From the IMG/VR virus record IMGVR_UViG_2595698945_000001: DNA of 64,000 nucleotides. One strand, written 5' to 3'. The stretch's first letter is position 1. Every line of letters begins with the position of its first letter. Shown in pieces: positions 1-64,000 of the stretch. The position numbers and the translations under genes are program-made. Source of the DNA: a virus. Lineage: Duplodnaviria; Heunggongvirae; Uroviricota; Caudoviricetes. Under the pieces are notes generated by a model. That model did not search any database. It had not been told where the DNA came from and was given only the letters and a program-made list of their open reading frames with translations.

Positions 1-1414
1 CAATTGGACTACCGCTGAATTTATCGCATGGCTAAAGGAGCGTGGTGCCTTCGAAGTACCATACTGGATGATGAAAGGTTCCTGGTCATATGCCGACAAT
101 AAAATTATCACTGATACAGGTGTCGGCAATATCTGTCTTGCTGGTTCGGTTGTCGAGGTTTTAGGTAACGAAGGTGCAATGACCATTCGAGTTACTACGC
201 CTACAACGACGACAGGTGGTGGGATTGCCTGTGCTCAGTTCACCTATATTAATCACGGTAGCGCGTATTCCCCTGCCTGGCGCAGAGATTACAACACGAC
301 TCTCAAGCCAACAGCGGCAGATGTTGGCGCATTCCCGATTTCTGGCGGTTCACTCTCTGGCGGAATCACTGCATCCGGAGAACTCCAGGTCACTTCGGCA
401 AAAACAGATGGAGGCCAATTCAGAGCTGTACATGGGAACTACGGTTTCTTTATCCGCAACGACGGTGCAAATACCTATTTTCTTCTTACCGATTCTGGCA
501 ATGCATATGGTGGTTGGAATGGTTTACGCCCTTTAACTATCAACAATGTCACTGGCCGTGCTTCTATATCAAACGGAATTGATATCGGTGGTGGGGCAAC
601 CATCAACGGAAGTGTGGGGTTGGGGGTTGCAAACGGGTTAGGCGGTAATTCAATCGTTCTTGGCGATAATGATACCGGCTTTAAACAGAACGGAGATGGA
701 ATTCTGGATGTTTACGCCAACAGTGCTCATGTTTTTAGGTTCATTAATAGCACGCTGCAAAGTCTTAAGCCGTTGAGTGTAACGGGTGACATCACGTCAA
801 GTGCGTGGGTTTACGCCAACCGTTTTTCCATCAACAGCAGTTCTGGCGCGTGGATCGATATGCGTAACCAGAACGTCATCTTCGGGAGGAACGCTGTAAG
901 TACAAGCTCTGCACAAGCGTTGTTGAGACAAGACCATGCGGATCGCAAATTCTTCTTGGGTGGCTTGGGAAACAGTCAGTTTGGTTTTTACATGATCAAC
1001 AATTCACGTACCGCAAACGGCACGGATGCGAACGCATACCTCCAGAATGATGGTACTTGGGTTTGTGGCGGTAATGGCAGCTTTAATGACGTTTATATCC
1101 GCTCTGACCGTCGTAGCAAACGTAATATTCGCAAGATTGAACGGGCGCTCGACAAGCTGGAGCGGGTCGAAGGTGTTCTGTACGAGATTCAGGTCTGTGA
1201 CCGTTATGAGCAGTCTGGTGGCCTCATCGCTCAGGACGTCCAGAATGTTCAGCCTGAACTAGTAACGGTTGACCATAACGATCAGTCCGGAGAGCCTCGT
1301 CTGCGTCTGAACTACAACGGCGTTATCGGTATGTTGGTCGAGGCTGTGAAGGAGTTACGTGAAGAAGTGCGCGAACTCCGTGGAGAAATATCTGTTTTAA
1401 AGGGAGGTAATTGA
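1..1414 (+). CDS. Tail fibre protein, 5'-truncated at the window edge, with C-terminal peptidase-S74 intramolecular-chaperone domain
   Basis: The reading frame is open from position 2, so the ATG at 68 is probably internal. Gly/Ser/Thr/Asn-rich beta-fibre sequence. The C-terminus (SDRRSKRNIRKIERAL...GVLYEI...LNYNGVIGMLVEAVKEL) matches the auto-cleaving chaperone of T5 L-shaped tail fibre and K1F endosialidase. Confidence 0.6.
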   Translation, partial: NWTTAEFIAWLKERGAFEVPYWMMKGSWSYADNKIITDTGVGNICLAGSVVEVLGNEGAMTIRVTTPTTTTGGGIACAQFTYINHGSAYSPAWRRDYNTTLKPTAADVGAFPISGGSLSGGITASGELQVTSAKTDGGQFRAVHGNYGFFIRNDGANTYFLLTDSGNAYGGWNGLRPLTINNVTGRASISNGIDIGGGATINGSVGLGVANGLGGNSIVLGDNDTGFKQNGDGILDVYANSAHVFRFINSTLQSLKPLSVTGDITSSAWVYANRFSINSSSGAWIDMRNQNVIFGRNAVSTSSAQALLRQDHADRKFFLGGLGNSQFGFYMINNSRTANGTDANAYLQNDGTWVCGGNGSFNDVYIRSDRRSKRNIRKIERALDKLERVEGVLYEIQVCDRYEQSGGLIAQDVQNVQPELVTVDHNDQSGEPRLRLNYNGVIGMLVEAVKELREEVRELRGEISVLKGGN

Positions 1415-1950
1415 TGGCTATTGGCTCCGGATGGGTCGGGTCGTCAGCCGTCGCAACAACTGGTCAGCGGTGGATGTCCGCCGCTGGCTCGGCTGTTAAG
1501 GTCGGCACACCGTTCTGGATGAGTGGCTTGGTTGGTAAATCTACTGCTGACTTTACCATCACAACTGGACGCAGTACTTATGATGCCCGCGTGCAGGTAA
1601 CAAACATGCAGTGGGTCGTTGTGTCCACTAACTACACCGGTTTTGCAACCGCTACAGGCAGTATCCAGAACGTACTCAGTAACGTTCTAACCGTGCGCCC
1701 TACTGGTTCTCTAAGCGGTAGCTTGTTTGGTTGTGAAATCCGACATTTTTATCAACCAAGCGGTTATCAAAATCTCTATTTGGGATTGGTTAATGGGCCT
1801 GCACAAAACTTTAGTCTATCTCTTAATGGTACTGTGCTGTCGTTTGTCAATTATATGTACCTAAATGGGGTGCGGTCTTATTACGCATTGACTGCTCAAA
1901 ACTGGTTTTTCAATCAGGTGGGGGCGACGTTTACCGTCTCCAGAGTCTGA
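1411..1950 (+). CDS. Hypothetical protein, tail fibre-associated (possible distal fibre or assembly protein)
   Basis: ATGA start/stop overlap with the fibre gene. Ser/Thr/Gly/Asn-rich beta-type composition. Confidence 0.4.
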   Translation: MMAIGSGWVGSSAVATTGQRWMSAAGSAVKVGTPFWMSGLVGKSTADFTITTGRSTYDARVQVTNMQWVVVSTNYTGFATATGSIQNVLSNVLTVRPTGSLSGSLFGCEIRHFYQPSGYQNLYLGLVNGPAQNFSLSLNGTVLSFVNYMYLNGVRSYYALTAQNWFFNQVGATFTVSRV

Positions 1951-1993
1951 ATTTAAGATGTGCGTTAGTACCTCTTTTCATGGAGGGTAAATA

Positions 1994-2248
1994 ATGAGTT
2001 ATGGGGCAAGAGTCTGGTCGCCTAGCCGTCAGGAAATGGTCGACGCATTAGCGCCAATTTATTATCTGGATTATTTTCTACCGACAGGTAGTGGTAGCAA
2101 AAGTTATGCAATTGAGTCTGGTATGTCAATTGATTACTACATAATGGAAACAATCAATGGATATATTGGAAGTGTTTCAGTATCGGGCAACTCGATTAAC
2201 TGGTCTGATGCTCGCGGTACAATTTATATATTGGTGTTTCAGAAATAA
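1994..2248 (+). CDS. Hypothetical protein
   Basis: Strong RBS GGAGGG upstream of the ATG. Co-oriented in the fibre module. Confidence 0.4.
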   Translation: MSYGARVWSPSRQEMVDALAPIYYLDYFLPTGSGSKSYAIESGMSIDYYIMETINGYIGSVSVSGNSINWSDARGTIYILVFQK

Positions 2249-2856
2249 TGTACGGAAGCAAAATTGTTCGTTCTGATGGGAAGGTCTGGATGTCTCCAAG
2301 TCTTACCCCGATGGTGTTCCAAAGTAAGCATGTGGTGTCGTTGCGAGGCGGAAGTGAGTTCAATACTGGCCTGTCTCCAGATCGGTCACCTATTGTTTTC
2401 GTTGCTTATTCAAAGGCTGTTTCGCTGCTCGCAAGCCGATTAGTTCGCAATAACCAGGTTATTTACAGCTTCGGTGGGGTAGGCAGCGACTCCAGTGTAA
2501 CGGTGTATGTGTTCGCAACTGGCATTTCAAAAAAAGAGAAGTGGGGGATGAGTTTCTTTAATTCATCGGGGGTGGAGATCTATAACACGGCAAATATTCC
2601 ATTGTCATTTACGTTTCTTGATAATAAGAGCTGGAACAGCGGAGATAAACACAACTTTGATTATCCAGTAGCTATTGTGCCTACATATGCTAACGCATTC
2701 GCCATACCGATGCCGGGTGGTGCGAAGACCCTAGTATACGGTTACACATGTTATGGGAACACCGTTAGTTCGATTCTCGTTAATGAAATTAACGGTGGGG
2801 CTACATTAGCTATCAATAACCGAGTTCCAGTTTTGAACAGAAACCTCTACGGATAA
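2248..2856 (+). CDS. Hypothetical protein (tail fibre module)
   Basis: ATGT overlap with the previous gene. 202 aa in the same operon. Confidence 0.45.
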   Translation: MYGSKIVRSDGKVWMSPSLTPMVFQSKHVVSLRGGSEFNTGLSPDRSPIVFVAYSKAVSLLASRLVRNNQVIYSFGGVGSDSSVTVYVFATGISKKEKWGMSFFNSSGVEIYNTANIPLSFTFLDNKSWNSGDKHNFDYPVAIVPTYANAFAIPMPGGAKTLVYGYTCYGNTVSSILVNEINGGATLAINNRVPVLNRNLYG

Positions 2857-2867
2857 CGGAGAATAGA

Positions 2868-3101
2868 ATGAAAAAGATGATATTAATTTTAGGTATGGCT
2901 TTAACTTTGACTGCCTGTCAGAAACTACCAGAGCCGGTTTGCTATGGGCGAGCAATGGTAGGCGGCGTTGACACTGGTGTGCCAATCTATGCGATTAAGA
3001 AAGAAGGGCATTACACATTATATCGTGCAGGTAGTGTCTTTAACTGGCGTTGGGTCGGCTCTGGTGCTTTCACCTCACTAAGCTCATGCCCAAAAATTTA
3101 A
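2868..3101 (+). CDS. Small lipoprotein
   Basis: Signal peptide plus lipobox LTLTAC. RBS GGAG upstream. Confidence 0.5.
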   Translation: MKKMILILGMALTLTACQKLPEPVCYGRAMVGGVDTGVPIYAIKKEGHYTLYRAGSVFNWRWVGSGAFTSLSSCPKI

Positions 3102-3107
3102 AACTCA

Positions 3108-3193: not shown

Positions 3194-3517
3194 ATGTCGA
3201 ACGAGATGGCAGGCGTAACGCCTGAGCAGGTTGAACGCATTGCCGCAATCGTTGCGCGTGAAGTCGTTGGCAAATTAGGTAAGGAGTTGCGTGAAGAAAT
3301 TGGACAGGAGGTCAATGACCAGCTCAAAACCTACTTTGGCGATATGACGCCTGCACAACACAGCATTCAGCACTCCAACCTGGACAAACTTCTTAACCGG
3401 CTCGACACCATCTCCAGCGGGTTCTTTGGCGGCATTATCTCAAAGATTACGTCGTTCCTGATTACCGCGCTGCTGCTGGGGTTAGCCGCCTACGGCGTAA
3501 AGAATGGACTGCAATAA
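3194..3517 (+). CDS. Putative holin (first gene of lysis cassette)
   Basis: RBS GGAGG sits 5 nt before the ATG at 3194. Single C-terminal TM segment (ITSFLITALLLGLAAYGV). Lies upstream of the endolysin-like gene and spanins. Confidence 0.4.
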   Translation: MSNEMAGVTPEQVERIAAIVAREVVGKLGKELREEIGQEVNDQLKTYFGDMTPAQHSIQHSNLDKLLNRLDTISSGFFGGIISKITSFLITALLLGLAAYGVKNGLQ

Positions 3518-3529
3518 AGGAGATCAAGG

Positions 3530-4222
3530 ATGAAAACTCCAAGAGGTATTCGTAACAACAACCCAGGCAATCTCGATAAGGGGTCGCCGTGGCAGGGGCT
3601 TATTAGCAACCCTTCCGAACCACGTTTCTGCACGTTCAAAGATCCCGTATGGGGGATTCGAGCGCTGGCGGTAACGCTCATCACTTACCACGACAAGCGC
3701 CGGGCGAAGGACGGCTCAAGCATCGATACCATTCGCGAGGTCATCGAGCGCTGGGCGCCGCCAAACGAAAACAACACCAGCGCCTACGTGAACGAGGTAT
3801 CTAAAGCCGTTGGTGTCACCCCGGACATGATCATCGATCTACACGACTACGACACTCTGCGTCCGTTGGTAGAGGCGATCATTCGGCACGAGAACGGCCG
3901 TGGCCCACTGAAAACGCCAAACACCTGGTATGCGGCAGAAGTTATTGAGGAAGGTCTGCGTCGCGCTGGCGTCGTTAAGCCGATCAAGACGGTTAAAGCG
4001 GTTCCTGTGACCAAAGAAACGGCTGGCGCAACTGTCACGGCAGGTATTGGGCTGGCGCAGCTGGCCGACGTAATGCCCCAAGTGTCTGTGGCGATGGATA
4101 AGGCACAAGGTCATATCACCAGCGGTGATACGGTTCGTATCATTTTTGGCGTAGCCACCATTATTGTGGCCGGCTTTATTGCCTGGTCTCAGGTACGCAA
4201 ACACCAGAAAGGGATGGTTTAA
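3530..4222 (+). CDS. Putative endolysin / cell-wall hydrolase with C-terminal TM anchor
   Basis: RBS AAGGAG. Placed between the holin candidate and the spanins. Conserved N-terminal motif GIRNNNPGNL. Hydrophobic C-terminal helix (IIFGVATIIVAGFIAW). The family was not positively identified. Confidence 0.4.
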   Translation: MKTPRGIRNNNPGNLDKGSPWQGLISNPSEPRFCTFKDPVWGIRALAVTLITYHDKRRAKDGSSIDTIREVIERWAPPNENNTSAYVNEVSKAVGVTPDMIIDLHDYDTLRPLVEAIIRHENGRGPLKTPNTWYAAEVIEEGLRRAGVVKPIKTVKAVPVTKETAGATVTAGIGLAQLADVMPQVSVAMDKAQGHITSGDTVRIIFGVATIIVAGFIAWSQVRKHQKGMV

Positions 4223-4223
4223 A

Positions 4224-4475
4224 ATGTTCGGCAGCCTGGTTTCGAAGTTGAAAATTGCTCTGATTACCCTGGCTGCCGTTCTTTTCGTGCTTGTCGGTGC
4301 TTATGCGATGGGTGGTCGTGCGGCTCGGCAAGCGATCGAAGAGAAGGCAAGGCAGGAAGACAGGAAAAGGCTTCAAAGTACAGTGGACGTCAAAAATGAG
4401 ACATTTAATGAAGTGCGGCGGAAAGGCGCTTCTGCTGTTCATCGTGAGCTGCATGGTAAGTGGGTGCGTGATTAA
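4224..4475 (+). CDS. i-spanin (Rz-like)
   Basis: N-terminal TM (IALITLAAVLFVLV) followed by a charged coiled-coil periplasmic domain. Contains the embedded o-spanin gene in the +1 frame. Confidence 0.55.
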   Translation: MFGSLVSKLKIALITLAAVLFVLVGAYAMGGRAARQAIEEKARQEDRKRLQSTVDVKNETFNEVRRKGASAVHRELHGKWVRD

Positions 4476-4638
4476 GACACAGACTTCCGGCGTGCTCTTC
4501 TGCGATGCAGCCAACCCTATCTATGTGAGTAATGAGGATTTAATGACCGAAGAGACAGAGCGGCAGATCTTGACTCACAATATGGTGGGCGAGCGTTTGT
4601 GCCAATGGAGCGGCAAAAAAGCAGACGAAAGCGCGTAA
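4396..4638 (+). CDS. o-spanin (Rz1-like lipoprotein), overlapping i-spanin
   Basis: MRHLMKCGGKALLLFIVSCMVSGC: signal peptide with lipobox. The start lies inside the i-spanin gene in another frame, i.e. the lambda Rz/Rz1 architecture. Confidence 0.55.
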   Translation: MRHLMKCGGKALLLFIVSCMVSGCVIKTQTSGVLFCDAANPIYVSNEDLMTEETERQILTHNMVGERLCQWSGKKADESA

Positions 4639-6134: not shown

Positions 6135-6800
6135 ATGACCAAGATCATTGTGGTTGGCGGCACAAAAGGCGGCCCAGGCAAATCTACCGTTGCCCAGCAA
6201 ATTGCGGTATGCCTCAAAGTTAAAAAGAAAAAGAAGGTTCATGTAACCGATATTGATATTCAGCGCACAACTACGAGCTGGTGTGAAGATCGTCGCCAGA
6301 ATGACGATCTTGAGCTGATTCCCTTCGCATATGTCCAGGACGACATCGTCAAACATCTTAAATCGCTTCAGGGGCGCACCGATTATGTAGTGGTGGATGC
6401 TGGTGGCTTTGACTCCGAAATTCAGCGTCTGGCGATGCTAATGGCTGACGTGATTATCATCCCGCTGCGCCCTAAACGTCGTGATTTGAAATCCCTGCGC
6501 GATATCGACCCGATTATCGACAACGTTCGCAACGTGAACGAGACTGTGAAGATCCGCGCGGTAGTGAACCAGTGTCCGTCACTGCCTTCCCAGGTGTCAC
6601 GTATTCTGGCGGCGAAAGAAATTGTAGAGACATTCGGCATCGAGGCTGCGCCGGTTAACTTGTACAACCGTAACGTTTATGACGACGCGGAAGAGGCTGG
6701 TCGTTCTATCTTTGAAATGACTGGCGCCGAACGCGATAAGAAGGCAGAAGCCGAGTTCGAAGAGTTTGTAGATTACATCATGAGTCTGGAGGAAGAATAA
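6135..6800 (+). CDS. parA: ParA partition ATPase (type Ib, small ParA)
   Basis: Deviant Walker A GGTKGGPGKST. 221 aa. Followed by a small RHH protein. Confidence 0.8.
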   Translation: MTKIIVVGGTKGGPGKSTVAQQIAVCLKVKKKKKVHVTDIDIQRTTTSWCEDRRQNDDLELIPFAYVQDDIVKHLKSLQGRTDYVVVDAGGFDSEIQRLAMLMADVIIIPLRPKRRDLKSLRDIDPIIDNVRNVNETVKIRAVVNQCPSLPSQVSRILAAKEIVETFGIEAAPVNLYNRNVYDDAEEAGRSIFEMTGAERDKKAEAEFEEFVDYIMSLEEE

Positions 6801-7159
6801 TGTCCATGAGAATGGGAGACCTTGCAAAGCGCAAAGAACCGGAAGAGCCGGTAAAAAGCAGCACCCCAATGCGCCAGCCAGTCAGACCGCAGGGGCGTCC
6901 GACTCGTGGGAAAGAGAAGATTAAGAGCCGCACAATGTCGCTGGAAGACGAGTACTTCGATCTGCTGGAGATGATGAAGTTCATCCCTCGTTTCGAGAAG
7001 TTCACCCGTTCTGACGTGATTCGTGCAGCCATTTTCCATCTGGCAGAGAAGTCGCCGCAGGAAATCGAGGACATCGTGAAACTGAACGAGGCGATCACCG
7101 CTGCCGACGTCACGATGCGCACCGATGAAATCAAACGCGAGTTGATGAAGAAAGGTTGA
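6800..7159 (+). CDS. ParG-like ribbon-helix-helix centromere-binding protein
   Basis: Overlapping start. Basic N-terminal tail plus the RHH-like segment KSRTMSLEDEYFDLLE. Partner of the small ParA. Confidence 0.55.
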   Translation: MSMRMGDLAKRKEPEEPVKSSTPMRQPVRPQGRPTRGKEKIKSRTMSLEDEYFDLLEMMKFIPRFEKFTRSDVIRAAIFHLAEKSPQEIEDIVKLNEAITAADVTMRTDEIKRELMKKG

Positions 7160-18162: not shown

Positions 18163-18237
18163 GATGGTGTAGCTCAGTGGTAGAGCGGTTGACTGTTAAT
18201 CAACTGGTCGGTGGTTCGAGTCCACCCACCATCGCCA
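18163..18237 (+). tRNA. tRNA-Asn (anticodon GTT), CCA encoded
   Basis: Cloverleaf built by hand: acceptor GATGGTG/CACCATC, D-arm gctc-agtggta-gagc, anticodon arm gttga-ctGTTaa-tcaac, T-arm ggtgg-ttcgagt-ccacc, discriminator G, then CCA. Confidence 0.8.
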
Positions 18238-26220: not shown

Positions 26221-26247
26221 AAAACCCGCCGATTGGCGGGTTTTTTA
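26221..26247. terminator. Bidirectional rho-independent terminator between convergent genes
   Basis: aaaaacccgccgattggcgggtttttt. Confidence 0.7.
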
Positions 26248-26823
26248 TGCGCAAATTTCTTCGCGATTATGCGGGCGAAGCAGTGAGTGGGTAATTGACT
26301 CCACCTCCTGAATGTCGCCAAACGATCTGATACGCAGGGCAAGATTCCACTTATTCAATGTGTGCGCGTTACGCACCAGTTCTTCCCGTGCTTTTGCGTC
26401 TTTGCTGTCGAGACGACCGCAGTCGTTCAACCATTTAGCGACTTCCGACCAATCCCAGAGTGGAGACTGACCGCTGATGCGCTGTACAGGGCAAGGGAAA
26501 TCGCCTTTGCCACGTAAGCCGTCTTTAAGCAGAGTGATAGCCTGGCGGGTTAAGCCGGAGAGTTGAGCGATATCACTCAAACCTACCAGTGCTGAATCTA
26601 CCGATTCCACCACTGCGCCAATACCTGCTGTTTCAATATTATCGATTGCCGATTTGATTGCCTGATCTAAAGATTCAGCTTCTCTGTCAAATTCTACATA
26701 CACTGAGCTGCCGTAGTAGCAGATGAGCGCGTCATCGCAACCGTTGGTGTACAAAGCGTCTGCGAGACCTTCGGTCTCCATCTGAACGCCTGATAATGTC
26801 AGTGTGAAGTTATAGAGTTCCAT
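26245..26823 (-). CDS. HicB-like antitoxin (N-terminal domain plus HTH)
   Basis: Lies downstream of the HicA-like gene on the same strand. HTH LSDIAQLSGLTRQAITLLK. Confidence 0.45.
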   Translation of the reverse strand: MELYNFTLTLSGVQMETEGLADALYTNGCDDALICYYGSSVYVEFDREAESLDQAIKSAIDNIETAGIGAVVESVDSALVGLSDIAQLSGLTRQAITLLKDGLRGKGDFPCPVQRISGQSPLWDWSEVAKWLNDCGRLDSKDAKAREELVRNAHTLNKWNLALRIRSFGDIQEVESITHSLLRPHNREEICA

Positions 26824-26875
26824 TTGGATCTCCTCGTCAAAAAGGCGGTTGCCCGCCTTGGCTAAAACTCCCGAA

Positions 26876-27112
26876 TCAGTCCTTTGTTGACTTCGGGTTA
26901 CAGCGGTCGACCATTCTGCGGATCTGCTTTGCGTGCGTCTCCGGGTCTTTTGGTGTGCTGTTTACGCTCATGGCGTGAGTACGTCCATGTTCGGCAATTC
27001 CGCATTTGATGGTACAGAAGGGGTGCCCTGTCGCTTCTTCAACGATCCAGCCTTTTTCTTCTGCGTAACGGAGTGCGTCACGTACTTCTTTATTAGGGTG
27101 CTTCTTACTCAT
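26876..27112 (-). CDS. HicA-like mRNA-interferase toxin
   Basis: 78 aa. Alignable by eye to E. coli HicA (..GW...G..H..........HG.......P.D.....I). Toxin-first gene order. Confidence 0.5.
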   Translation of the reverse strand: MSKKHPNKEVRDALRYAEEKGWIVEEATGHPFCTIKCGIAEHGRTHAMSVNSTPKDPETHAKQIRRMVDRCNPKSTKD

Positions 27113-34456: not shown

Positions 34457-34464
34457 GAACACTA

Positions 34465-36130: not shown

Positions 36131-36840
36131 TCCAAGTGTCTCTTTTTATTCGACCGCTTTGGTGGCCTTTGCTGATTACAGTGGATAGTAGCACTCATCA
36201 CAGCGGTTATCCTACCGCCTATAGTGGTTTTTCTACTCTCTACAGTGGTTGGCTTGCTCTTCATAGTGGCTGATCTTCTCTCTATAGTGGATATCGATCA
36301 CCTCTAAGGCTATGCGGCACAAGGGTTTGCGGGGTGCGGGGATCTTTTTGGGTCTTTGTGGGTCTCTTTGGTTCTCTTTGGGATCTGAATTACTGGATCG
36401 GGCCTGTGTATAAAAATCAGGTAATTGCAAAACCAGCCATCACTCCCCTTCTGGGGATAATGTGTGGTCGAAACAAACACGCCTGAACGCAAATCTTCCA
36501 GTATGTCTATGAATATCAGCTACCTGCCGTAGAAAAACAGGCACTGAGTTATCCAGTTAAGACAATGTCTCCTACTCACTACAGTGGATACCGACCACTC
36601 TCCAGAGAGGTTGTTTTGCTCTTCATAGCGGTTATTATGCTCTCTACAGAGGTTACTTTCCTCCCCATAGTGGATAGTAACCCCCTCTCAGGCCAGTAAC
36701 CGCAACGGCTGGAGACGATCGGGGATCTCTTTTGATCTTCTGTAGGATCTCTCTGGGGATCTAATTATTGGATCGGGCCTGTGAATAATGGGTATAAGTA
36801 AAACAGGCATTTGCAAACATCGGTGCGCCTTGTCAGTTAT
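36131..36840. repeat. oriV/promoter region of repA: iterons (36173-36300, 36573-36690) plus a tandemly duplicated GATC-rich block (36335-36420 and 36716-36800)
   Basis: tactctctacagtggttgg, cttcatagtggctga, ctctatagtggatat; duplicated ggggatct...tggatcgggcctgtg(t/a)ataa units, each carrying several GATC sites. Confidence 0.7.
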
Positions 36841-45794: not shown

Positions 45795-45901
45795 TGAGCG
45801 TGGGGAGAAATCCCCACCTTTTCATTGAGTTGAGCACCTTGTTTAAACCAATAAGATAACAATTTGTTTAAAGCCATTCGATAACATTCAGAGGGAAACA
45901 C

Positions 45902-47044
45902 ATGACTTATTCTACTTTCCGTTTGGGCGCTAACGACGCAACGAAGGAACCTATGTTCCTCGGCCAGTCTGTCAACGTAGCACGCTACGATCAGCAAAAG
46001 TACCGTGACTTCGAAAAGCTGATTGAAAAACAACTTTCGTTCTTCTGGCGCCCTGAAGAAGTCGACATTACCACTGACCGCATCGACTTCAATACCAAGC
46101 TGCAAGAGCACGAGCGCCATATTTTCCTGAGCAACCTGCGTTACCAGACGCTGTTGGATTCCGTTCAGGGTCGCAGTCCTAACGCAACACTGCTGCCGCT
46201 GATCTCCATTCCTGAGCTGGAGACATGGGTCGAGACCTGGTCGTTCTCCGAGACGATTCACAGCCGCAGCTATACGCACATTATCCGCGGTATGGTGGAT
46301 GACCCTAGCATCGTTTTCGACGGCATCGTCACGGACGAAGAGATCATCAGCCGGGCTGTAAGCATCTCAAGCGAATATGACAGACTGTACGAAATGACCT
46401 GCGCTCGCCAGCATCTTGGCGAAGACGAATTTGAACGGCTGTATGTCAGCGAGTTTGATGGCAAGCCCTACCCTCTCCAGCGCCAGCTGTTCCGAACACT
46501 GGTGTCGGTGAATGCACTGGAGGCGATTCGCTTCTACGTGAGCTTTGCGTGTACGTTCGCCTTTGGTGAGCGGAAGCTGCTGGAGGGCAACACGAAGATC
46601 ATGCGCTTTATCGCGCGCGACGAGGCTCTACATTGCGAAGGGACTGAACGCATGATCCGCTTTATGCGTACCGGTCGTGAAGGTCTGATGTGGAAGATGA
46701 TTGCCGCAGAAGAAGAGAGCTTCATCTATCAGACCATGATGGACGTGGCCGGGCAGGAAATGCGCTGGGCTGACTATCTGTTTAAAGACGGCTCAATGAT
46801 TGGCTTGAATGCCGACATCCTCAAAAGCTATGTGAAATACCGCACCAACCTGGCAATGCGTCGTCTGGGGCTGCGACCGCTGTTCCCGGAAATTAAAGAC
46901 GATCCACTGGTATGGATGAACAAATGGCTGCTGTCAGACACCCTGCAGATCGCTCCGCAGGAAGCTGAACAAAGCAACTACCTCGTCGGCCAGATTGATT
47001 CCGCTGTCGATCGCTCCGGACTGAGCCAGTTCGCAGACCTTTAA
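45902..47044 (+). CDS. nrdB: Ribonucleoside-diphosphate reductase beta (NrdB)
   Basis: 380 aa. Di-iron ligand pattern (E..H repeats, EALHCEG). Immediately downstream of nrdA. Confidence 0.85.
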
Positions 47045-47126
47045 GCCGAGTTTAACCACTTTGTAGCCTGGCGCTGCTGGGTCACAATTGACGCATCAAA
47101 TGAAGTCCAAAGGAAAGAAAGAAGAC

Positions 47127-47996
47127 ATGAAATTTACGAAACTGACCGATCATCTGAAACTTGCCGCAGACAAACTCGTGGGATTTAAACCTGAGCCTTA
47201 CGAGTTGAATCCTGGTTTTGGCAAGGCAACGGAAAGCATCTACCTGATGGTTGACCAGTTCCACACACTGTTTCAGCACCCACGCCGTGCCATTCCAGAT
47301 CCGGCATTACTGCGTCTGCGTGCCAAGCTGATCCACGAAGAAGCAGTTACCGAGGGCATCCCGGCAGCCAAAAATGGGGATATGACGGCACTGCTGGACG
47401 CGATGGCTGACTTCCTTTACGTGGGCGTCGGCACAATGGTGGCCATCAAAGGCGGCATCTCGACGGGCATGAGTTACTACACCCAAGAGCAGAGTGTTGA
47501 TCGCTTCATCCACACCATCATGGTTCCGGGCAACACGGTCTTTGACGATATGGCCATCCCGTTTGAAGAAGCAAAAGAAGCTGCATTAATGCTGAATGCA
47601 CTGGCTGACAAACTCGAAGCGAAGCCGATAAGCGATTCCGAATTGGTGCAGGAGCTGCGCCGCGTGATGAACAAAATCTACGTTGCCTGCATGATGACCT
47701 ACCGCCTGGCTGATTTTCTCGGTATCGATATTGTTGAGCTGGTGGCAGAAATCCATCGTTCCAACATGACCAAGCTGTGGCCGGCTGACGCAGAAGAGCG
47801 TCGTGTGGCGGTAGAGAATTGCAAATACGACAAGGAAGACCTGGGCTTCCGCCATGCTGAAGGGACTGACATGATGATTGGCTTCAGAATTACTGATGGC
47901 AAGATCCTCAAATCCCCAACCTACAGCGATGTGGATCTGACTCGCTTTGTTGAGAAGGCGAAATCCTCATCTCTTTACGAGATGGTAAAAAAATAA
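47127..47996 (+). CDS. Hypothetical protein (nucleotide-metabolism module; possible NTP pyrophosphohydrolase-like)
   Basis: ATG at 47127 after RBS AAGGAAAG. No firm motif. Confidence 0.4.
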   Translation: MKFTKLTDHLKLAADKLVGFKPEPYELNPGFGKATESIYLMVDQFHTLFQHPRRAIPDPALLRLRAKLIHEEAVTEGIPAAKNGDMTALLDAMADFLYVGVGTMVAIKGGISTGMSYYTQEQSVDRFIHTIMVPGNTVFDDMAIPFEEAKEAALMLNALADKLEAKPISDSELVQELRRVMNKIYVACMMTYRLADFLGIDIVELVAEIHRSNMTKLWPADAEERRVAVENCKYDKEDLGFRHAEGTDMMIGFRITDGKILKSPTYSDVDLTRFVEKAKSSSLYEMVKK

Positions 47997-48025
47997 TTGT
48001 AAGTATTCACTTATCATTATATATT
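47995..48025. promoter_or_regulatory. Motif A palindrome copy
   Basis: aattgtaagtattcacttatcattatatatt. Confidence 0.45.
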
Positions 48026-48144
48026 GCCTGGGCGTGTTTTATTGTCCAAGTTCTTAATTGCTCATTGCAATGGTGGCCTAAGAGCCACCATTTTTTTTAC
48101 TCCCCTCCTAGCCTTACACACTTCTGACAGATAAACTTGTATAA

Positions 48145-48176
48145 AATAATATGTATGTACTTACTTATCTTGTGTG
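48145..48176. promoter_or_regulatory. Motif A palindrome copy abutting the thyA start
   Basis: aataatatgtatgtacttacttatcttgtGTG. Confidence 0.5.
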
Positions 48177-49289
48177 AGGTTGATTTTGTCTATCCTACTG
48201 AATCGAGACTTTACGAACGGTCAGTTTGCCAGTGGTTCGTATGCCAAAGTGGTTGAAACGGTGCTCAACACTGGCGTTCACGCGGGTGATCGCACCGGAA
48301 CCGGCACAAAAAGTGTTTCATATGTCCCTTCCTACTACATGCTGACGGGCGGCTCTGTTCCACTTATCTCCGGAAAAGCCGTCAATCTGAAGCCGTTACT
48401 GGTTGAGCTGGAGTGGTATCTCAAAGGAACGGGCAACATCCAGTTCCTGAAAGACAATGGCGTCAAAATCTGGGATGCCTGGGCCGATGAAAATGGCGAT
48501 TTAGGCCCGGTCTATGGCAAGCAATGGCGTCGGTGGGAAGACACTCGCATCGTGAGCCATAGCGAGTATCTGCGCAAAATCGACACGTTCCGTGAGCGCG
48601 GGTACAAGGTCGAGGGGTATCTGGGCGTAAGTGAAGATCGCGTTGTGTTGTCCCGTGAAATCGACCAGCTACAGCGTATCGTTGACACGCTTCGCACCAA
48701 CCCTACAGATCGTCGCATCCTGCTGAATGCTTGGAATGTTGGCGAACTGGAAGATATGAAGCTGCCGCCATGCCATTTCGTGTTTTCACTGTGGAGTCGC
48801 GAGCTGGACTTTGAGACCCGACTGACTATGGCCACCGACATTGGCATACAGCACAACCGCCACGGCCACGAGTCCATTTACACCCAGATGCTGTGTCTTC
48901 TGGAAAGAGATGGCGGCATTACTGAGAACACGCTGGACGAGTTGGGCATCCCGAAACGCATTCTGAACTCATGCCTGGTTCAACGCAGTGTCGATACCTT
49001 TGTTGGTATGCCGTTCAACATCGCCGGTTACGGCATTCTCACCCACTTCCTCGCGAAGATCACCGGCCACATGGCTGGCGCATTCGTACATTTTGGCTTT
49101 GACGTTCATCTCTACGACAACCACATGGAAGGCGTTGAGGAACTGATGAAGCGCGAGCCGCCCAAAGAGTCCGACCCGGTTGTCATCTTCCCGCATGAAT
49201 GGGCCGAACTGGACGACTTCAAATGGGAAGGTGTGCAGGTGTGCGGCTACAGCCCTCTTCCGTGGATCAAGGTTCCAGTGGCGGTGTGA
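48174..49289 (+). CDS. thyA: Thymidylate synthase ThyA with two large insertions
   Basis: DRTGTGT, GDLGPVYGKQWRRW, LPPCH, FVGMPFNIAGY. About 30-aa and 50-aa inserts relative to E. coli ThyA. GTG/TTG start. Confidence 0.8.
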   Translation: MRLILSILLNRDFTNGQFASGSYAKVVETVLNTGVHAGDRTGTGTKSVSYVPSYYMLTGGSVPLISGKAVNLKPLLVELEWYLKGTGNIQFLKDNGVKIWDAWADENGDLGPVYGKQWRRWEDTRIVSHSEYLRKIDTFRERGYKVEGYLGVSEDRVVLSREIDQLQRIVDTLRTNPTDRRILLNAWNVGELEDMKLPPCHFVFSLWSRELDFETRLTMATDIGIQHNRHGHESIYTQMLCLLERDGGITENTLDELGIPKRILNSCLVQRSVDTFVGMPFNIAGYGILTHFLAKITGHMAGAFVHFGFDVHLYDNHMEGVEELMKREPPKESDPVVIFPHEWAELDDFKWEGVQVCGYSPLPWIKVPVAV

Positions 49290-49290
49290 T

Positions 49291-49704
49291 ATGGCCAGAG
49301 GGATGTATGTGTTGTGTGAAATTGAAGGTGTGCTGGCGAGAGCCAGCCATCGTAAAGCAGTGCCTGATGCGGATGCAGGCGCTCTCATTGCCGGTGATGA
49401 ACTCATCTTTCCCACCAGCCGCATGTTGCGTGGTTTTGCTCGATCCGGTGCTGAAGTGGTGCTTATCAGTAGTCGTCAGGAAGCGCTCGAAGGCCCAACC
49501 AAACGCTGGCTGAAGGACTTCGGCATTGATTATGACTGGCTCCACCTGGTTCCGCGCGGTGTCAGTTTTGAAACCCATATCAAGCGCACGCTGGCAGAGC
49601 ACAAAGGCGACTTACTTATCGCCGCACTGGTTCATGATCCGCGTCTGCGTTCTGCGCTGGCAGATTCTCACCAGCCACCAACCATCTATGAGGTAAGCCA
49701 ATGA
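49291..49704 (+). CDS. Hypothetical protein (possible HAD-like nucleotidase fold)
   Basis: ATG 2 nt after the thyA stop. Overlaps the DHFR start. Confidence 0.35.
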   Translation: MARGMYVLCEIEGVLARASHRKAVPDADAGALIAGDELIFPTSRMLRGFARSGAEVVLISSRQEALEGPTKRWLKDFGIDYDWLHLVPRGVSFETHIKRTLAEHKGDLLIAALVHDPRLRSALADSHQPPTIYEVSQ

Positions 49705-50177
49705 AGATGATTGCAGCTGTCGGCCGCAACTATGAAATCGGCATTGGCAACGAACTTCCCTGGCGTTGCCCGACCGATCTGAAACTGTTCAAACAACTCA
49801 CCAAAAACGCCACTGTCGTGATGGGACGTAAGACGATGGAAAGTCTTAAACGCCCGCTACCAGAGCGCCATAACCTCGTTTTGACGCGCTCTCGTGGCTA
49901 TATCCCCAATGGTTTCTACCCCGCTGGCATCGATGACGTTTTGAGACTACCAGATCCGGTCTGGGTGATTGGTGGCGGGCAGATTTACTCGCTCTTTATG
50001 CCACACGTTGAAGAGATCTGGCTGTCGCATATTGGCGTGGATGTGCCGGGCGCGGATGCGTTCTTCCCGGCGCCAATGATGCGTTCTTTAGGGTTCGTAC
50101 CAGTCGAAACGGCTTATACCCAACGTGCAAATGAGGATGAGCCTGGCTTTTTGCAGATCGTATACAGAAGGTCGTAA
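49701..50177 (+). CDS. folA: Dihydrofolate reductase
   Basis: MIAAVGRNYEIGIGNELPW...VVMGRKTMESL...NLVLTRS aligns with E. coli FolA. Confidence 0.8.
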   Translation: MKMIAAVGRNYEIGIGNELPWRCPTDLKLFKQLTKNATVVMGRKTMESLKRPLPERHNLVLTRSRGYIPNGFYPAGIDDVLRLPDPVWVIGGGQIYSLFMPHVEEIWLSHIGVDVPGADAFFPAPMMRSLGFVPVETAYTQRANEDEPGFLQIVYRRS

Positions 50178-50821
50178 TGGATTACCGGATTGGAATCACT
50201 GGCGCACAGGGCAGTGGGAAAACAACCCTGGCAAGGTACATCGATGCGCATTATGGCATTCCGTATGTGGATGCCGGTGTTGGCAAGCTGATGAGCAGTC
50301 TGGGGGTGAAGGTTGGCGAGCGTTTGCCTCTTTACGAACGTCTTCAGGTTCAGATGGAGATTGCCAGACACATCGAGATGATCACCCGCGGCGTTGAAGG
50401 TTTTGTTATCGACCGCACGCCAGCCGATGTCATGGCTTATACGCTAGACCTGGTCGGTCAGACCAACGAAGACCGCTGCATCGAGCTGGCTCTCGACATT
50501 GAGCAGTTTTGCCACAAAGCGGCCATTTCCAACTTCAATGCTATCGCGGGTCTTCGCCCGGGCGTTGAGCTTTCCAGCAAAGATCTCGCGCGTCCCCAGC
50601 GAGGATCGCTTGACCGTCTCTATGTTGCTCGCATCGATGCACTTATGTGCGGTGAGCTGACGAAAATCAACACGCTTCCCCAAACCGGCGATCTGCAGGT
50701 GTTCGTTATCTCTGAAAAGTGCCGCACGGTTGAAGCGCGAGCCAGATCGGTATTGCGAGTGCTGGACAGAGCCGCTGAAAACATCGAGCGCCGTATAACA
50801 GGACGAGTGACCTTCCACTGA
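50177..50821 (+). CDS. P-loop nucleotide/(d)NMP kinase
   Basis: Walker A GITGAQGSGKTTLA at the N-terminus. Sits in the thyA-folA operon. Confidence 0.5.
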   Translation: MDYRIGITGAQGSGKTTLARYIDAHYGIPYVDAGVGKLMSSLGVKVGERLPLYERLQVQMEIARHIEMITRGVEGFVIDRTPADVMAYTLDLVGQTNEDRCIELALDIEQFCHKAAISNFNAIAGLRPGVELSSKDLARPQRGSLDRLYVARIDALMCGELTKINTLPQTGDLQVFVISEKCRTVEARARSVLRVLDRAAENIERRITGRVTFH

Positions 50822-50884
50822 ATGTTGCTCCCCTGTTGGGCAGTGTGACAATAAGACACGCGAAATGAATCGAGGAAAAACAGA

Positions 50885-51304
50885 ATGATAGACGAACTTC
50901 CCCTCTCGGATGAATTAGATCGTAAAGTGATTGAAGCACTGATCCGCATTGCTGACGAACAATCCCGCTCTTTGATGAGTGAACGTGAAGCACGTCAGGC
51001 TATCCGCGCAGTGTTTGAGTCCGTTCAAGGGCTTGTTGGGGAAGAGGTTGGCGAAGCCATCAATGTGGCGATGTCGCAGTTCAATGGCGGCACCAAGCGC
51101 CCTCTGTTTCCTATGCACCTCAAACTCTCAGGCGGTACGGTTCTGTTCGTATCCGTTTGCCTGGAGACCAATCAAATCCAGATCCTCAACACATCAACGG
51201 GCGAATGGCGCGAGCCGGTCGTCTGCGAAAGTGGCGAGGACGCACTGAAAAAGGCTGCTCAGTTTGTGCGTGGCGCACTGCTGAAAGGCGCGAAGAAGCT
51301 GTAA
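50885..51304 (+). CDS. Hypothetical protein
   Basis: 139 aa. Confidence 0.4.
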   Translation: MIDELPLSDELDRKVIEALIRIADEQSRSLMSEREARQAIRAVFESVQGLVGEEVGEAINVAMSQFNGGTKRPLFPMHLKLSGGTVLFVSVCLETNQIQILNTSTGEWREPVVCESGEDALKKAAQFVRGALLKGAKKL

Positions 51305-51313
51305 GGAGTACCA

Positions 51314-51871
51314 ATGACCACGATTGTCGGTGGCGTAGATATTGAGTCCACAGGGCTGGACTTCACATCCGGCCACAAAATTATCGAAATCGCGATAACC
51401 CGGTATGAACTGGAAACCCAGAAGCACATCGACAGCCTTGAGATGCGCTTCAACCCGCGTCGCAGTATCGATCCGAAAGCGCAGGCGGTGCATGGCATTT
51501 CACTGGAAGAGCTGGCGACGGAACCGCTACTGGCTGACCACGCAGGCAAGATTGCTGCGTACATGGGCGCATGTAGCGCGTTAGTCGCCCATAACGGAGA
51601 GGCTTTTGACCTTCCGTTCATTCGCCACGAGTTCGGTAGCTATGGGGTGAAATTGCCAGATATCCCTCTTGTTGACTCAATGCTAGATGGCTTGTGGGCT
51701 ACCGAGGATGGGAAGCGTCCACGCCTGGAAGAGCTGGCGTTCTCACTTGGGTTCACTTACGACCGTGAGAAGGCCCACAGTGCTCTCTACGATACTGACC
51801 TGATGATGCAGTGTTTCTTCAAAGCCCGAGAGAAATACGGCTTCTTCAAACTACCATTTGAGCGTTCTTGA
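51314..51871 (+). CDS. DnaQ-like 3'-5' proofreading exonuclease (DEDDh)
   Basis: Exo I VDIESTGL. Exo II HNGEAFDLPF. Exo III HSALYDTD. Confidence 0.7.
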   Translation: MTTIVGGVDIESTGLDFTSGHKIIEIAITRYELETQKHIDSLEMRFNPRRSIDPKAQAVHGISLEELATEPLLADHAGKIAAYMGACSALVAHNGEAFDLPFIRHEFGSYGVKLPDIPLVDSMLDGLWATEDGKRPRLEELAFSLGFTYDREKAHSALYDTDLMMQCFFKAREKYGFFKLPFERS

Positions 51872-59842: not shown

Positions 59843-59874
59843 AAGAATAGATCCACTTTATCAGAGGTAAACAC

Positions 59875-60842: not shown

Positions 60843-60844
60843 CT

Positions 60845-61216: not shown

Positions 61217-61219
61217 ATG

Positions 61220-61254
61220 AAGGCCACTATTGTGGCCTTTAACAATTTGTTTTC
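61220..61254 (+). promoter_or_regulatory. Composite element: ggccacta-N-tgtggcc hairpin plus Motif B
   Basis: aaggccactattgtggcctttaacaatttgttttc. The same composite occurs at 63242-63277. Confidence 0.5.
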
Positions 61255-61307
61255 TACCTTTTCTTATCTGTGAAAATAACCACATCCAGAAAACAACGGA
61301 GTTAAGA

Positions 61308-62497: not shown

Positions 62498-62535
62498 GTG
62501 ATATAGTCAGGCGCTTTTGTATTTATGGAGTGAAT

Positions 62536-63234: not shown

Positions 63235-63241
63235 GACAGAT

Positions 63242-63277
63242 AAGGCCACTAATTGTGGCCTTAAACAATTTGTTTTA
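63242..63277 (+). promoter_or_regulatory. Composite element: hairpin plus Motif B
   Basis: aaggccactaattgtggccttaaacaatttgtttta. Confidence 0.5.
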
Positions 63278-63289
63278 TTGATGGTGAAA

Positions 63290-63493
63290 TCAATGGAACC
63301 CCAGGCGAACTAAATCCATTGGGCAGAACAGACCTTCCACACCTTCGATAGATACGCAGTCAGAGCGGCGTAATTGTTCTTCTGATTTGCCTTCTCCACA
63401 GATTTCCTTGATGACTCCCGTTGCACCATTCGTTGCCACCATCACCCGGCTGCCGGCAGTGATAACGTTACGGTTGCGATCATAGGTCTTCAT
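63290..63493 (-). CDS. Hypothetical small protein
   Basis: Strong minus-strand RBS GAAAGGAGGAAA. Confidence 0.4.
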   Translation of the reverse strand: MKTYDRNRNVITAGSRVMVATNGATGVIKEICGEGKSEEQLRRSDCVSIEGVEGLFCPMDLVRLGFH

Positions 63494-63680
63494 CGTTTCC
63501 TCCTTTCACATGGGTCAAATCAGGTCTCAAACGTTGTCGTTTTCCATGTATGTGCAATTACCAAAATCTCAAGTGCCGAAACAAATTGTTTTCACCCCCT
63601 GGTTATTCCCTTAATCCGTAAAGTTGACCGGTATAATTACAAATACCACTGTTTATATATACAGTATCGAGGGCGGAAAA

Positions 63681-63947
63681 ATGGGACTCAAAGACTCAAA
63701 CTATCAGATCGTCTACAGAGGTGAGACTCTTCAAAATTTCAAACCGGGGCAGTACGTTTTCTTTCAACGATTGAAGGAGTATGGCGGCGGATACTGGTTG
63801 GGCAGGACTCATGAAGATGGGTTCGAGTTTTTGCTGGAAGAACCAACCTCGCTGGGAAGAGGTCTTGAGTTTCTGATAACGCACTCGAGCGTGGAGGCCA
63901 GATTTATCGAGTTCGTCAACGATGCGGACGACTTTAAACTCACCTAA
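63681..63947 (+). CDS. Hypothetical protein
   Basis: ATG after RBS GAGGGCGGA. A Motif B copy lies upstream at 63578-63594. Confidence 0.35.
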   Translation: MGLKDSNYQIVYRGETLQNFKPGQYVFFQRLKEYGGGYWLGRTHEDGFEFLLEEPTSLGRGLEFLITHSSVEARFIEFVNDADDFKLT

Positions 63948-64000
63948 TCATCCCTTAAACATCTTGTTTTCTACCTTTTGTTATTTGAGATAATAACGCC

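Follow-up and report, generated by a model that had tools for sequence, protein, structure and literature searches.

Several well-described replicons resemble the element studied here. Phage P1 persists without chromosomal integration; it has an oriR-repA-incA replicon, a parABS partition system with a large ParA, and the phd-doc addiction module. The partition system of the Yersinia pestis plasmid pMT1 (pFra) is likewise of the P1/P7 parABS type. RepFIB replicons are also found in F-type plasmids, which are conjugative and carry the replicon within a non-phage backbone. The RepFIB sequences of F-type plasmids and of the S. Typhi plasmid pHCM2 are far apart, and PlasmidFinder keeps a separate pHCM2-type IncFIB reference.

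Salmonella phage SSU5 is a model phage-plasmid. It names the group SSU5_pHCM2, whose Inc type is IncFIB (PMC7969092; PMC11652158; bioRxiv 10.1101/2025.09.12.675607; also PMC12977533), and pMT1 forms a group of its own, also named pMT1 (PMC7969092). Cells carry about 5.5 copies of Cyrano, a relative of SSU5 that produces virions (PMC9928086).

Place of the window in SSU5 and its phage genes

The 64-kb stretch of DNA analysed here (the window) is SSU5 itself and not a new relative. It corresponds to positions 24363-88362 on the plus strand of the SSU5 record (NC_018843.1 / JQ965645.1). Identity was 100.0% over 1-25000, 25001-50000, and 50001-64000, and no difference from the record was found over the full 64 kb. 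An initial annotation made from the sequence alone had called the window a phage-plasmid of the SSU5/pHCM2 type. Because the window is identical to published SSU5, that call was correct, yet it amounts to textbook knowledge, as SSU5 is the standard case of a phage kept in its host as an IncFIB plasmid. Synteny with pHCM2 was also found: pHCM2 (NZ_CP029889.1) aligned in 12 collinear blastn blocks that covered 84.6% of the window at 96.1% identity. The two elements share the par pair, the replisome, NrdAB/ThyA/FolA, and Rha. They differ in the tail fibre, in a 7.5-kb integrase island present in pHCM2, and in an unrelated 196-aa gene that, in pHCM2, occupies the place of the HicA-fold gene pair of SSU5.

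The rest of the SSU5 record supplies what the window lacks. Positions 1-24362 hold the head, tail, and packaging genes, and terminase, capsid, tape-measure, and tail genes are annotated in this remainder. Positions 88363-103299 hold a repressor and a ParB/Srx-like region; in other words, the lysogeny repressor lies beyond the window. Virion and lysis genes are thus present on one replicon together with genes for plasmid replication and partition. Within the window the two classes are interleaved as had been described, with RepA and ParA lying amid tail, lysis, and replisome genes.

The phage genes listed in the initial annotation were recovered by Pfam or PHROG matches, and all are on the plus strand. 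The window opens with the 3' part of a tail fibre gene (1-1414; phrog_22609, E 1.9e-186) and a tail fibre adhesin gene (1414-1950; phrog_1121, E 2.2e-55), a region that is not common to pHCM2. A lysis cassette without Pfam matches follows at 3194..4638. Its endolysin-like gene (3530-4222, E 8e-88) and Rz/Rz1-like spanin genes (4224-4475 and 4408-4638, E 5e-23 and 2.2e-26) were identified by PHROG, but the putative holin (3194-3517) bears that name only as a RefSeq label and matches a PHROG of unknown function.

Replication genes comprise a DnaB-like helicase (10055-11395; DnaB_C), a primase (11543-12658; weak DNAG_N/Toprim_2 matches, the only ones of this set not above Pfam thresholds), an ATP-dependent ligase (15266-16588; DNA_ligase_A_M), and DnaE (22258-25776; DNA_pol3_alpha, E 4e-73). 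The CobT-like (18399-20744; CobT and CobT_C, E 2.5e-112) and CobS-like AAA (20842-22077; AAA_5) genes that had been proposed are likewise present. Recombination and nuclease genes include those for a UvsY-like protein (27368-27799; 85% identical to Cyrano 'UvsY'), a gp32-like SSB (27919-28944; gp32, E 9e-72), a 5'-3' exonuclease (29005-29949; 5_3_exonuc_N), a RecA-like protein (30218-31294; RecA, E 1e-42), and SbcD-like (38853-39938; Metallophos) and SbcC-like (40168-42084; AAA_23, SMC_N) nucleases. Matches above the Pfam thresholds were obtained for NrdA (43479-45794), NrdB (45902-47044), ThyA (48186-49289), DHFR (FolA; 49701-50177), and a DnaQ-like 3'-5' exonuclease (51314-51871), and a MazG-like pyrophosphohydrolase and an AAA kinase-like protein are encoded in the same interval (43479..51871). 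Further downstream are Dam methyltransferase (53297-53914; Dam, E 5e-37), RNase H (54785-55549; RNase_H, E 9e-46), and a Rha/Ant-type regulator (56493-57308; phrog_63 Ant). The Phage_pRha match of the last (31.9 bits against a cut-off of 29.9) is above the cut-off only when an upstream ATG is taken as the start.

The initial annotation had also stated that no integrase is present. This holds for SSU5 as a whole, as neither the annotation nor tblastn with three recombinases (best E 0.4) revealed an integrase anywhere in its 103 kb, inside or outside the window. It does not extend to pHCM2 and PhiR41_1, both of which carry a tyrosine integrase island beside tRNA-Asn. In pHCM2 the 7.5-kb island, with the integrase, phoH, and grxA, lies about 45 nt downstream of the tRNA gene. 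The island is absent from SSU5, whose tRNA-Asn (GTT) gene lies at 18163..18234 on the plus strand (ARAGORN; Rfam tRNA, 76.2 bits).

The IncFIB replicon and the partition genes

The repA gene (35066..36130, minus strand) encodes a 354-aa Rep_3 initiator of the RepFIB type (Pfam Rep3_N, E 7.4e-11, 43 bits; Rep3_C). As had been predicted, it clusters with RepFIB initiators and is flanked by iterons. SSU5 RepA is 98.0% identical to pHCM2 RepA, 98.6% to the RepA of pMT, 100% to that of plasmid p4-20710, and, across 299 aa, 63.9% to that encoded by the IncFIB plasmid p1658/97. The last represents the F-type RepFIB plasmids; its initiator belongs to the same family as that of SSU5 and is annotated as RepB-family, and the plasmid is typed IncFIB. 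The SSU5 replicon was typed by proxy: p4-20710, pHCM2, and pMT, whose rep regions are identical or near-identical, all have the MOB-suite type IncFIB in PLSDB. These three are circular plasmid records typed as non-mobilizable. At the nucleotide level the SSU5 replicon is intact and 95-97% identical to those of pHCM2 and pMT (95.5% for the rep region of pMT1/pFra). Both RefSeq and PHROGs mislabel the repA product as a 'replication helicase'.

The iteron CTCNCTACAGTGGWTA has 23 matches in the window, where 1.7 are expected, and 21 of them fall at 34463-35063 and 36172-36676. The field downstream of repA (34463..35063) contains 14 copies in both orientations, by motif counts, and its position is incA-like. 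Upstream, 7 or more copies are found at 36172-36676, with a period of 21-22 nt, in two blocks (36172-36293 and 36575-36676). The origin region (36172..36788) holds two units, in each of which an iteron block is combined with a GATC cluster and one DnaA box. TTATNCACA occurs nowhere else in the 64 kb than at these two boxes (36405-36413 and 36780-36788). This layout resembles that of P1, which also has an iteron-binding Rep_3-class initiator, with origin iterons, DnaA boxes, and GATC sites upstream and control iterons downstream. In other respects P1 is different: it is an unrelated myovirus with other genes and is not known to encode a DnaE replisome of its own.

A small ParA paired with a ribbon-helix-helix (RHH) protein had been proposed as the partition system. 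The ParA part was confirmed. The plus-strand gene at 6135..6800 encodes a 221-aa Walker-type ATPase with a deviant Walker A motif (GGTKGGPGKST), which matches Pfam MipZ, AAA_31, and CbiA above cut-off and phrog_164 (ParA-like), and scores 116.9 bits, under the cut-off of 180, against NCBIfam ParA_partition. Its ATPase domain starts at residue 2 and no N-terminal DNA-binding domain precedes it. The adjoining gene (6800..7159, plus strand; RefSeq start 6869) encodes a 119-aa protein that adjoins ParA in all 797 plasmids and is a candidate RHH centromere-binding protein. It has a conserved core (IKSRTxSxEDE...RSDVxRAA) and no Pfam match or PDB sequence match; the RHH assignment comes from two sub-threshold matches, to aCcr1 (E 1.9e-4, SSU5 protein) and to RHH_1 (E 0.035, Moellerella homologue). 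No convincing family of centromere repeats was found in 5700-8400. The small ParA with a short partner differs from the P1 arrangement, in which a large ParA with an HTH is combined with ParB. The SSU5-type partner was also not found in Yersinia plasmids.

Proposed plasmid maintenance and competing explanations

How would such an element persist? With high confidence, the window is read as the middle 64 kb of a temperate, siphovirus-type phage that lacks an integrase and is equipped for life as a low-copy circular plasmid. The sequence itself shows the identity to SSU5, the gene content, the layout of iterons and DnaA boxes, the relatedness to RepFIB, and the absence of integrase; that SSU5 is maintained as a plasmid, with partition and toxin-antitoxin activity, is inferred. 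Nothing in the sequence is at odds with this explanation. If SSU5 works as P1 and RepFIB replicons do, RepA would bind the 21-22-nt iterons that lie upstream of repA and, together with host DnaA at the two boxes and Dam-methylated GATC clusters, would open the origin. The 14 downstream iterons may titrate or handcuff RepA and in this way set the copy number. The small ParA and its 119-aa partner would segregate the plasmid copies, and the HicA-fold module probably stabilises the element or serves as defence cargo. The predicted combination of active partition and an addiction module in an element that stays out of the chromosome is again P1-like. Lytic growth would draw on replisome and nucleotide-supply genes that the phage itself encodes (DnaE, DnaQ-like, DnaB, primase, ligase, gp32, UvsY, RecA, NrdAB, ThyA, and FolA).

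An opposing explanation is that SSU5 is effectively virulent, its RepFIB, ParA, and toxin-antitoxin genes being relics or serving lytic growth only, with no plasmid persistence. SSU5 is termed 'virulent' in the abstract of PMC5427195, it was isolated as a free phage and used in biocontrol (as cited in PMC7969092), and its GenBank record is linear. However, the near-identity of its replicon to those of bona fide circular plasmids, a RepA the same as that of p4-20710, and iteron fields, DnaA boxes, and par genes that are all intact argue against this reading. Repressor-like genes are annotated beyond the window, and reviews list the SSU5_pHCM2 group as experimentally validated (PMC11652158). Virulence without persistence is therefore considered quite improbable.

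Two further alternatives have a negligible probability. The first 25 kb of the window match 845 PLSDB plasmids, most of which are known only as plasmids, as would be expected of a defective phage-like plasmid, one that took up phage genes and has lost the ability to form virions. This is already refuted by where the SSU5 record comes from: the window has the same sequence as a phage that was obtained in the form of infectious particles on S. Typhimurium LT2, and the full record includes the terminase, capsid, tape-measure, and tail genes. Scarcely any more credible is an integrative prophage or chromosomal island that acquired plasmid genes secondarily. It could appeal to the integrases of pHCM2 and PhiR41_1 and to the product of 26245-26823, which RefSeq names 'excisionase and transcriptional regulator'. 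That label goes back to a PHROG name, 'excisionase', given to the HTH protein that accompanies the HicA-fold protein. Moreover, no integrase homologue exists in the 103 kb of SSU5, and its close relatives are all free circular plasmids. The maintenance of SSU5 as a plasmid thus remains the preferred explanation.

A dispersed palindrome and a HicA-fold gene pair

The palindrome AAACAAWTTGTTT is dispersed over the window in front of many genes. In the form AAACAA-W-TTGTTT it occurs at 10 sites where 0.11 are expected, and all 10 are intergenic although intergenic DNA makes up 11% of the window. Only one copy, at 6087, lies near the par genes. The palindrome is found at fixed distances from start codons, is embedded in a conserved promoter-like module of ~60 nt, and keeps its position in a relative that is ~80% identical. 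The 13-mer has no occurrence in the searchable literature. It appears from these sequence features that the palindrome may be one dispersed operator of SSU5-type phage-plasmids, and that parA, dnaB, cobT, nrdB, rha, and methyltransferase genes may be under a single dimeric regulator. If true, plasmid partition and the phage replisome would be placed under one regulator, in a scattered immunity network like that of P1.

A hicAB-like toxin-antitoxin pair had been reported in the initial annotation. The likeness to HicA stands by fold and gene order, but neither gene has a HicA or HicB sequence match and the partner is not of the HicB fold. The module (26245..27112, minus strand) consists of a gene for a putative 78-aa Cys/His-rich toxin (26876-27112) followed by a gene for a 192-aa partner (26245-26823), whose N-domain is ferredoxin-like and which also has an HTH. 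According to its structure model, the toxin candidate carries the HicA fold. No Pfam or NCBIfam model of HicA or HicB matches the pair, none of 64 family members matches Pfam HicA_toxin at E<=0.1, and a PDB profile search with the 78-aa protein gave no HicA sequence match. As in HicAB, a small protein comes before a larger partner whose C-terminal domain is DNA-binding, and the SSU5-type 78-aa family has an invariant His before strand 2. Unlike HicA, these toxin candidates have extra conserved Cys residues (including the invariant C37 and C71) and a near-invariant second His (H60). The partner departs from HicB, as its N-domain is modelled as beta-alpha-beta-beta-alpha-beta, which is ferredoxin/ACT-like. 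In Foldseek this model had no match at E<=1e-3, HicB structures were missing from the 50 matches listed, and a HicB-fold antitoxin (partial RNase H / DUF1902) was rejected as the identity of the partner.

The pair is an unclassified, widely spread HicA-fold two-gene module. It may represent a toxin-antitoxin or defence family for which there has so far been no sequence model. Taken together, this prediction and the dispersed-operator network are a tentative proposal, given slightly less than an even chance. An ICE, a Bradyrhizobium chromosome, and a Gloeothece plasmid also carry the pair, conserved as a unit, as do metagenome contigs, and its genes often overlap there by 11-14 nt. The partners across these loci are homologous (hhalign probability 99.2-99.9%). 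Closer to SSU5, Yersinia pMT1 has a divergent allele of the HicA-fold protein that is 47% identical.

Identity of the window as phage SSU5

Each third of the window gave a single full-length match, at 100.0% identity, to Salmonella phage SSU5 (JQ965645.1 / NC_018843.1) in a megablast search of a phage collection. The matched positions of the SSU5 record were 24363-49362, 49363-74362, and 74363-88362, and a record coordinate is obtained by adding 24362 to the window coordinate. Since all three thirds matched over their full length at 100.0% identity, the window is SSU5 itself. The RefSeq annotation was used for the window stretch and for the remainder of the 103,299-bp SSU5 record.

The S. Typhi plasmid pHCM2 (NZ_CP029889.1; circular, 106,706 bp) was taken whole for blastn and aligned with the window in 12 collinear blocks that covered 84.6% of it at a mean identity of 96.1%. 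The initial annotation had read the window as a phage-plasmid of the SSU5/pHCM2 type, and had named a lack of significant synteny with SSU5/pHCM2-like phage-plasmids or a RepA outside RepFIB as observations that would speak against this reading. The synteny is present and RepA groups with RepFIB, so neither of these observations was made. Together with the 100.0% identity to SSU5, the synteny and the RepFIB-related RepA bear out the proposed type. The observation is thus confirmed and its interpretation supported, with corrections. The segments absent from the pHCM2 alignment were 1-3112 (tail fibre), 4602-6023, 7158-9070, 12664-13164, 26217-27329, 51862-52193, 56502-56930, and 62471-63241. 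The first 25 kb of the window had matches in 845 PLSDB plasmids, 800 of which are classed as 'non-mobilizable'.

The phage-plasmid interpretation of SSU5 is correct but is already in the literature, and the main finding adds nothing new. The SSU5 sequence has been out since 2012. SSU5 stands alongside P1 and N15 among the standard examples of phage-plasmids, and both the SSU5_pHCM2 group and the SSU5 supergroup are named after it (PMC7969092). A review table lists the SSU5_pHCM2 group as IncFIB siphophages of ~107 kb (PMC11652158), SSU5-type rep genes are listed under IncFIB in typing tools (bioRxiv 10.1101/2025.09.12.675607), and further literature deals with SSU5-type phage-plasmids (PMC12977533). 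The supergroup is the largest among enterobacterial phage-plasmids, takes in pHCM2 and the plague plasmid pMT1, and is relevant to how resistance genes spread. What, then, is the use of the check? A phage-plasmid was recognisable from raw sequence by a first-stage reader, and three annotation details (RepA, the HTH partner described below, and the start codon of Rha) were put right. Furthermore, two under-described and experimentally testable features were flagged, namely a HicA-fold module that no family model covers and an operator-like palindrome at scattered sites.

The initial annotation had also stated that no integrase is present, which holds for SSU5 but not for its group. RefSeq lists no integrase anywhere in SSU5. 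Pfam matched no recombinase among the annotated SSU5 products of at least 200 aa other than the tail fibre, which was checked by PHROGs, and a 213-aa HD-domain protein. Likewise, tblastn of the 103-kb SSU5 sequence with the integrases of pHCM2 and of PhiR41_1, a relative of SSU5, and with a plasmid tyrosine recombinase gave a best E of 0.4. However, pHCM2 and PhiR41_1 both have a tyrosine integrase, carried on an island located ~45 nt downstream of tRNA-Asn. In other words, the absence of an integrase is a trait of SSU5 and not of the entire group. The pHCM2 island spans 7.5 kb (pHCM2 64643-72179), contains phoH and grxA, and is absent from SSU5; no att-like tRNA-Asn repeat was found at its far end. 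The island junction (window 18235-18311) lies within a hairpin of which pHCM2 has the complete form and SSU5 a truncated one. Because of this truncation SSU5 looks like the deleted form, suggesting that the island was lost from it by deletion.

Replication and partition genes

RepA (35066-36130, minus strand) contains the Pfam domains Rep3_N (43 bits) and Rep3_C. It is 98.0% identical to the RepA of pHCM2 and 98.6% identical to that of Y. pestis pMT. Compared with the initiator of the conjugative IncFIB plasmid p1658/97, a member of the RepB family, the identity is 63.9% over 299 aa. MOB-suite assigns the IncFIB type to pHCM2, pMT, and p4-20710, whose RepA is 100% identical to that of SSU5. 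The Rep_3 domains, the similarity to the p1658/97 initiator, and the typing of the near relatives agree with the original assignment of RepA as RepFIB-related. The RefSeq label 'replication helicase', which comes from phrog_775, is misleading because RepA is a Rep_3 initiator and not a helicase.

The iterons reported on both sides of repA were recovered in a search of the whole 64 kb with a 16-nt core (CTCNCTACAGTGGWTA, up to 3 mismatches). The core gave 23 matches versus 1.7 expected, a number reached in 0 of 100 shuffles. All but two adjoin repA: 14 lie 3' of the gene (34463-35063), with copies in both orientations, and seven lie 5' of it (36172-36676). A repeat finder resolved the upstream iterons into two tandem blocks with a period of 21-22 nt (36172-36293 and 36575-36676), and also found degenerate copies and a 44-nt segment that recurs 375 nt apart. 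After each upstream block come clustered GATC sites and a perfect DnaA box (36405-36413 and 36780-36788), and these two boxes are the sole TTATNCACA sites in the window. The origin region (36172-36788) appears duplicated, consisting of two iteron/GATC/DnaA-box units ~375 nt apart.

Such an iteron and DnaA-box layout is known from P1 oriR-repA-incA and from RepFIB, and the SSU5 rep region resembles both. Judging from this likeness, replication would start at the upstream iterons together with DnaA, and the downstream iteron field would set the copy number.

The proposed ParA/RHH partition pair (6135-7159) stands firmly for its first gene and is plausible for its second. The 221-aa product of 6135-6800 is a ParA/MinD-class ATPase with Pfam MipZ, AAA_31, and CbiA matches above cut-off, a match to phrog_164 ('ParA-like'), and a deviant Walker A motif (GGTKGGPGKST); the NCBIfam model ParA_partition gave 116.9 bits, under the cut-off of that model. 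Its 119-aa partner (6800-7159; RefSeq start 6869) matches phrog_5111, a family of unknown function, over its full length. The conserved core of the partner (IKSRTxSxEDE ... RSDVxRAA) gave only a sub-threshold match to a ribbon-helix-helix model, aCcr1 (E 1.9e-4), and a distant homologue with 32% identity gave a sub-threshold RHH_1 match (E 0.035, Pfam at E<=10). Neither phmmer nor a profile search found a match to the partner in the PDB, and no centromere-like repeat family was found around the par genes. A tblastn search of plasmids found the partner in 797 of them, mostly at >=90% identity and always next to the ATPase, with none in Yersinia, including Y. pestis pMT1. The partner is unusually conserved, with at least 90% amino-acid identity in ~740 plasmids. 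Klebsiella elements that are only ~80% identical to SSU5 in DNA still fall within this group. A tRNA-Lys called by ARAGORN (6123-6203, minus strand) overlaps the start of parA and is probably a false positive, as Rfam gave nothing there even at E<=10.

A HicA-fold two-gene module

The only gene pair in the window with a hicAB-like shape lies at 26245-27112 on the minus strand. The first gene (26876-27112) encodes a 78-aa protein, rich in Cys and His, whose fold resembles that of HicA, and the second (26245-26823) a 192-aa partner that combines a ferredoxin-like domain and an HTH. Is the pair a hicAB system, as the initial annotation proposed? The two-gene shape and the HicA-like fold of the small protein argue for the proposal, although HicA ranked second in Foldseek with a non-significant E of 0.34. 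However, neither protein matched HicA or HicB in Pfam, NCBIfam, PHROGs, or PDB sequence and profile searches, and 0 of 64 homologues of the small protein tested with Pfam matched HicA_toxin. A HicB fold for the partner was rejected. Its model (pLDDT 87.7) combines an N-domain of ferredoxin-like type (beta-alpha-beta-beta-alpha-beta) with an HTH and long helices at the C-terminus. From the PDB, Foldseek retrieved nothing but generic ferredoxin/ACT folds, none of them significant, and there was no HicB structure among the 50 matches listed. The module may work like hicAB, yet it lies outside the HicA and HicB sequence families and its partner outside the HicB fold. The RefSeq name of the partner, 'excisionase and transcriptional regulator', also calls for correction: the product is the HTH partner of a HicA-fold protein.

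No Pfam or NCBIfam model covers the two-gene module. The family of the small protein is nevertheless sizeable: at 50% identity it forms 295 clusters, and a profile search gave 474 clusters at 90% identity. Its invariant residues include H5, G21, H30, C37, T53-P54, and C71. The two genes are kept together, often with an 11-14 nt overlap, in Yersiniaceae ICEs, a Bradyrhizobium chromosome, and a Gloeothece plasmid, and also occur on metagenome contigs beside an AAA_21/RloB pair. The partner proteins of separate loci are homologous (hhalign probability 99.2-99.9%). The module was found in 300 PLSDB plasmids, whose alleles are just 44-58% identical. At the same locus, the SSU5 relative Cyrano has homologous genes (58% and 68% identity) annotated as HicA and HicB, and these are reported to be expressed above the local prophage background level (PMC9928086). 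pHCM2 carries an unrelated gene there, and the locus is a variable slot. Among the available readings, we moderately favor a type II TA or defence cassette, made up of a HicA-fold toxin-like protein and a non-HicB DNA-binding partner. No TA family was matched in a scan confined to annotated proteins, namely 20 small ones of the window (Pfam, E<=0.1).

Phage genes and a dispersed palindrome

The phage genes listed initially (replisome, nucleotide metabolism, tail fibre, and lysis) were recovered by Pfam or PHROGs, the primase weakly. Pfam confirmed DnaE, a DnaQ-like exonuclease, DnaB, an ATP-dependent ligase, NrdA, NrdB, ThyA, DHFR, and RNase H, as well as CobT, a CobS-like AAA_5 protein, RecA, gp32, a 5'-3' exonuclease, SbcCD, a MazG-like protein, Dam, SPFH, and LprI. 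PHROGs confirmed the tail fibre, adhesin, Cor, endolysin, and spanins. Rha (56493-57308) is present as claimed, with Phage_pRha above cut-off (31.9 versus 29.9 bits) only when the ATG at 56493 is taken. From the RefSeq start (56574), the N-terminal Rha winged-helix domain is removed and no Pfam match is left; this start codon is too far downstream.

Rfam found no families in the gaps 17415-18162 and 51872-54784. The former, 748 nt that precede tRNA-Asn, lacks a plausible ORF and is ~94% identical in pHCM2. A long hairpin at 53934-54007, in the gap that follows the Dam methyltransferase gene, is probably a terminator or other inverted repeat; its two strands gave far sub-threshold matches to miRNA-precursor models, which were dismissed as meaningless.

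The palindrome AAACAAWTTGTTT occurs at 10 sites in the window (up to 1 mismatch) versus 0.11 expected. The 13-nt sites are at 6087, 10023, 18367, 32486, 45857, 56411, 58106, 61240, 63263, and 63579, and position 57383 comes in addition to these. All 10 fall within intergenic DNA, which makes up 11% of the window. Several of them stand 13-36 nt ahead of a start codon (parA, dnaB, cobT, nrdB, and a DUF4942 methyltransferase gene). An alignment revealed that they lie in a longer, conserved, promoter-like module of ~60 nt, consisting of CGCCTTTT, a ~12-nt spacer, ATAAC.CCAAYAAGA, the palindrome, and an RBS. How might the palindrome act? An RNA hairpin is ruled out because its centre is a single base. 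AAACAAWTTGTTT looks like the putative operator of a global regulator, most likely a dimeric DNA-binding protein that would act on a family of promoters. Candidates for the binding protein are two repressor-like genes located beyond the window, SSU5_116 and SSU5_121. The 13-mer had no mention in the searchable literature. Additional copies are present in the remainder of SSU5 and in pHCM2, and in PhiR41_1 the palindrome stands at unchanged distances before parA, dnaB, and cobT.
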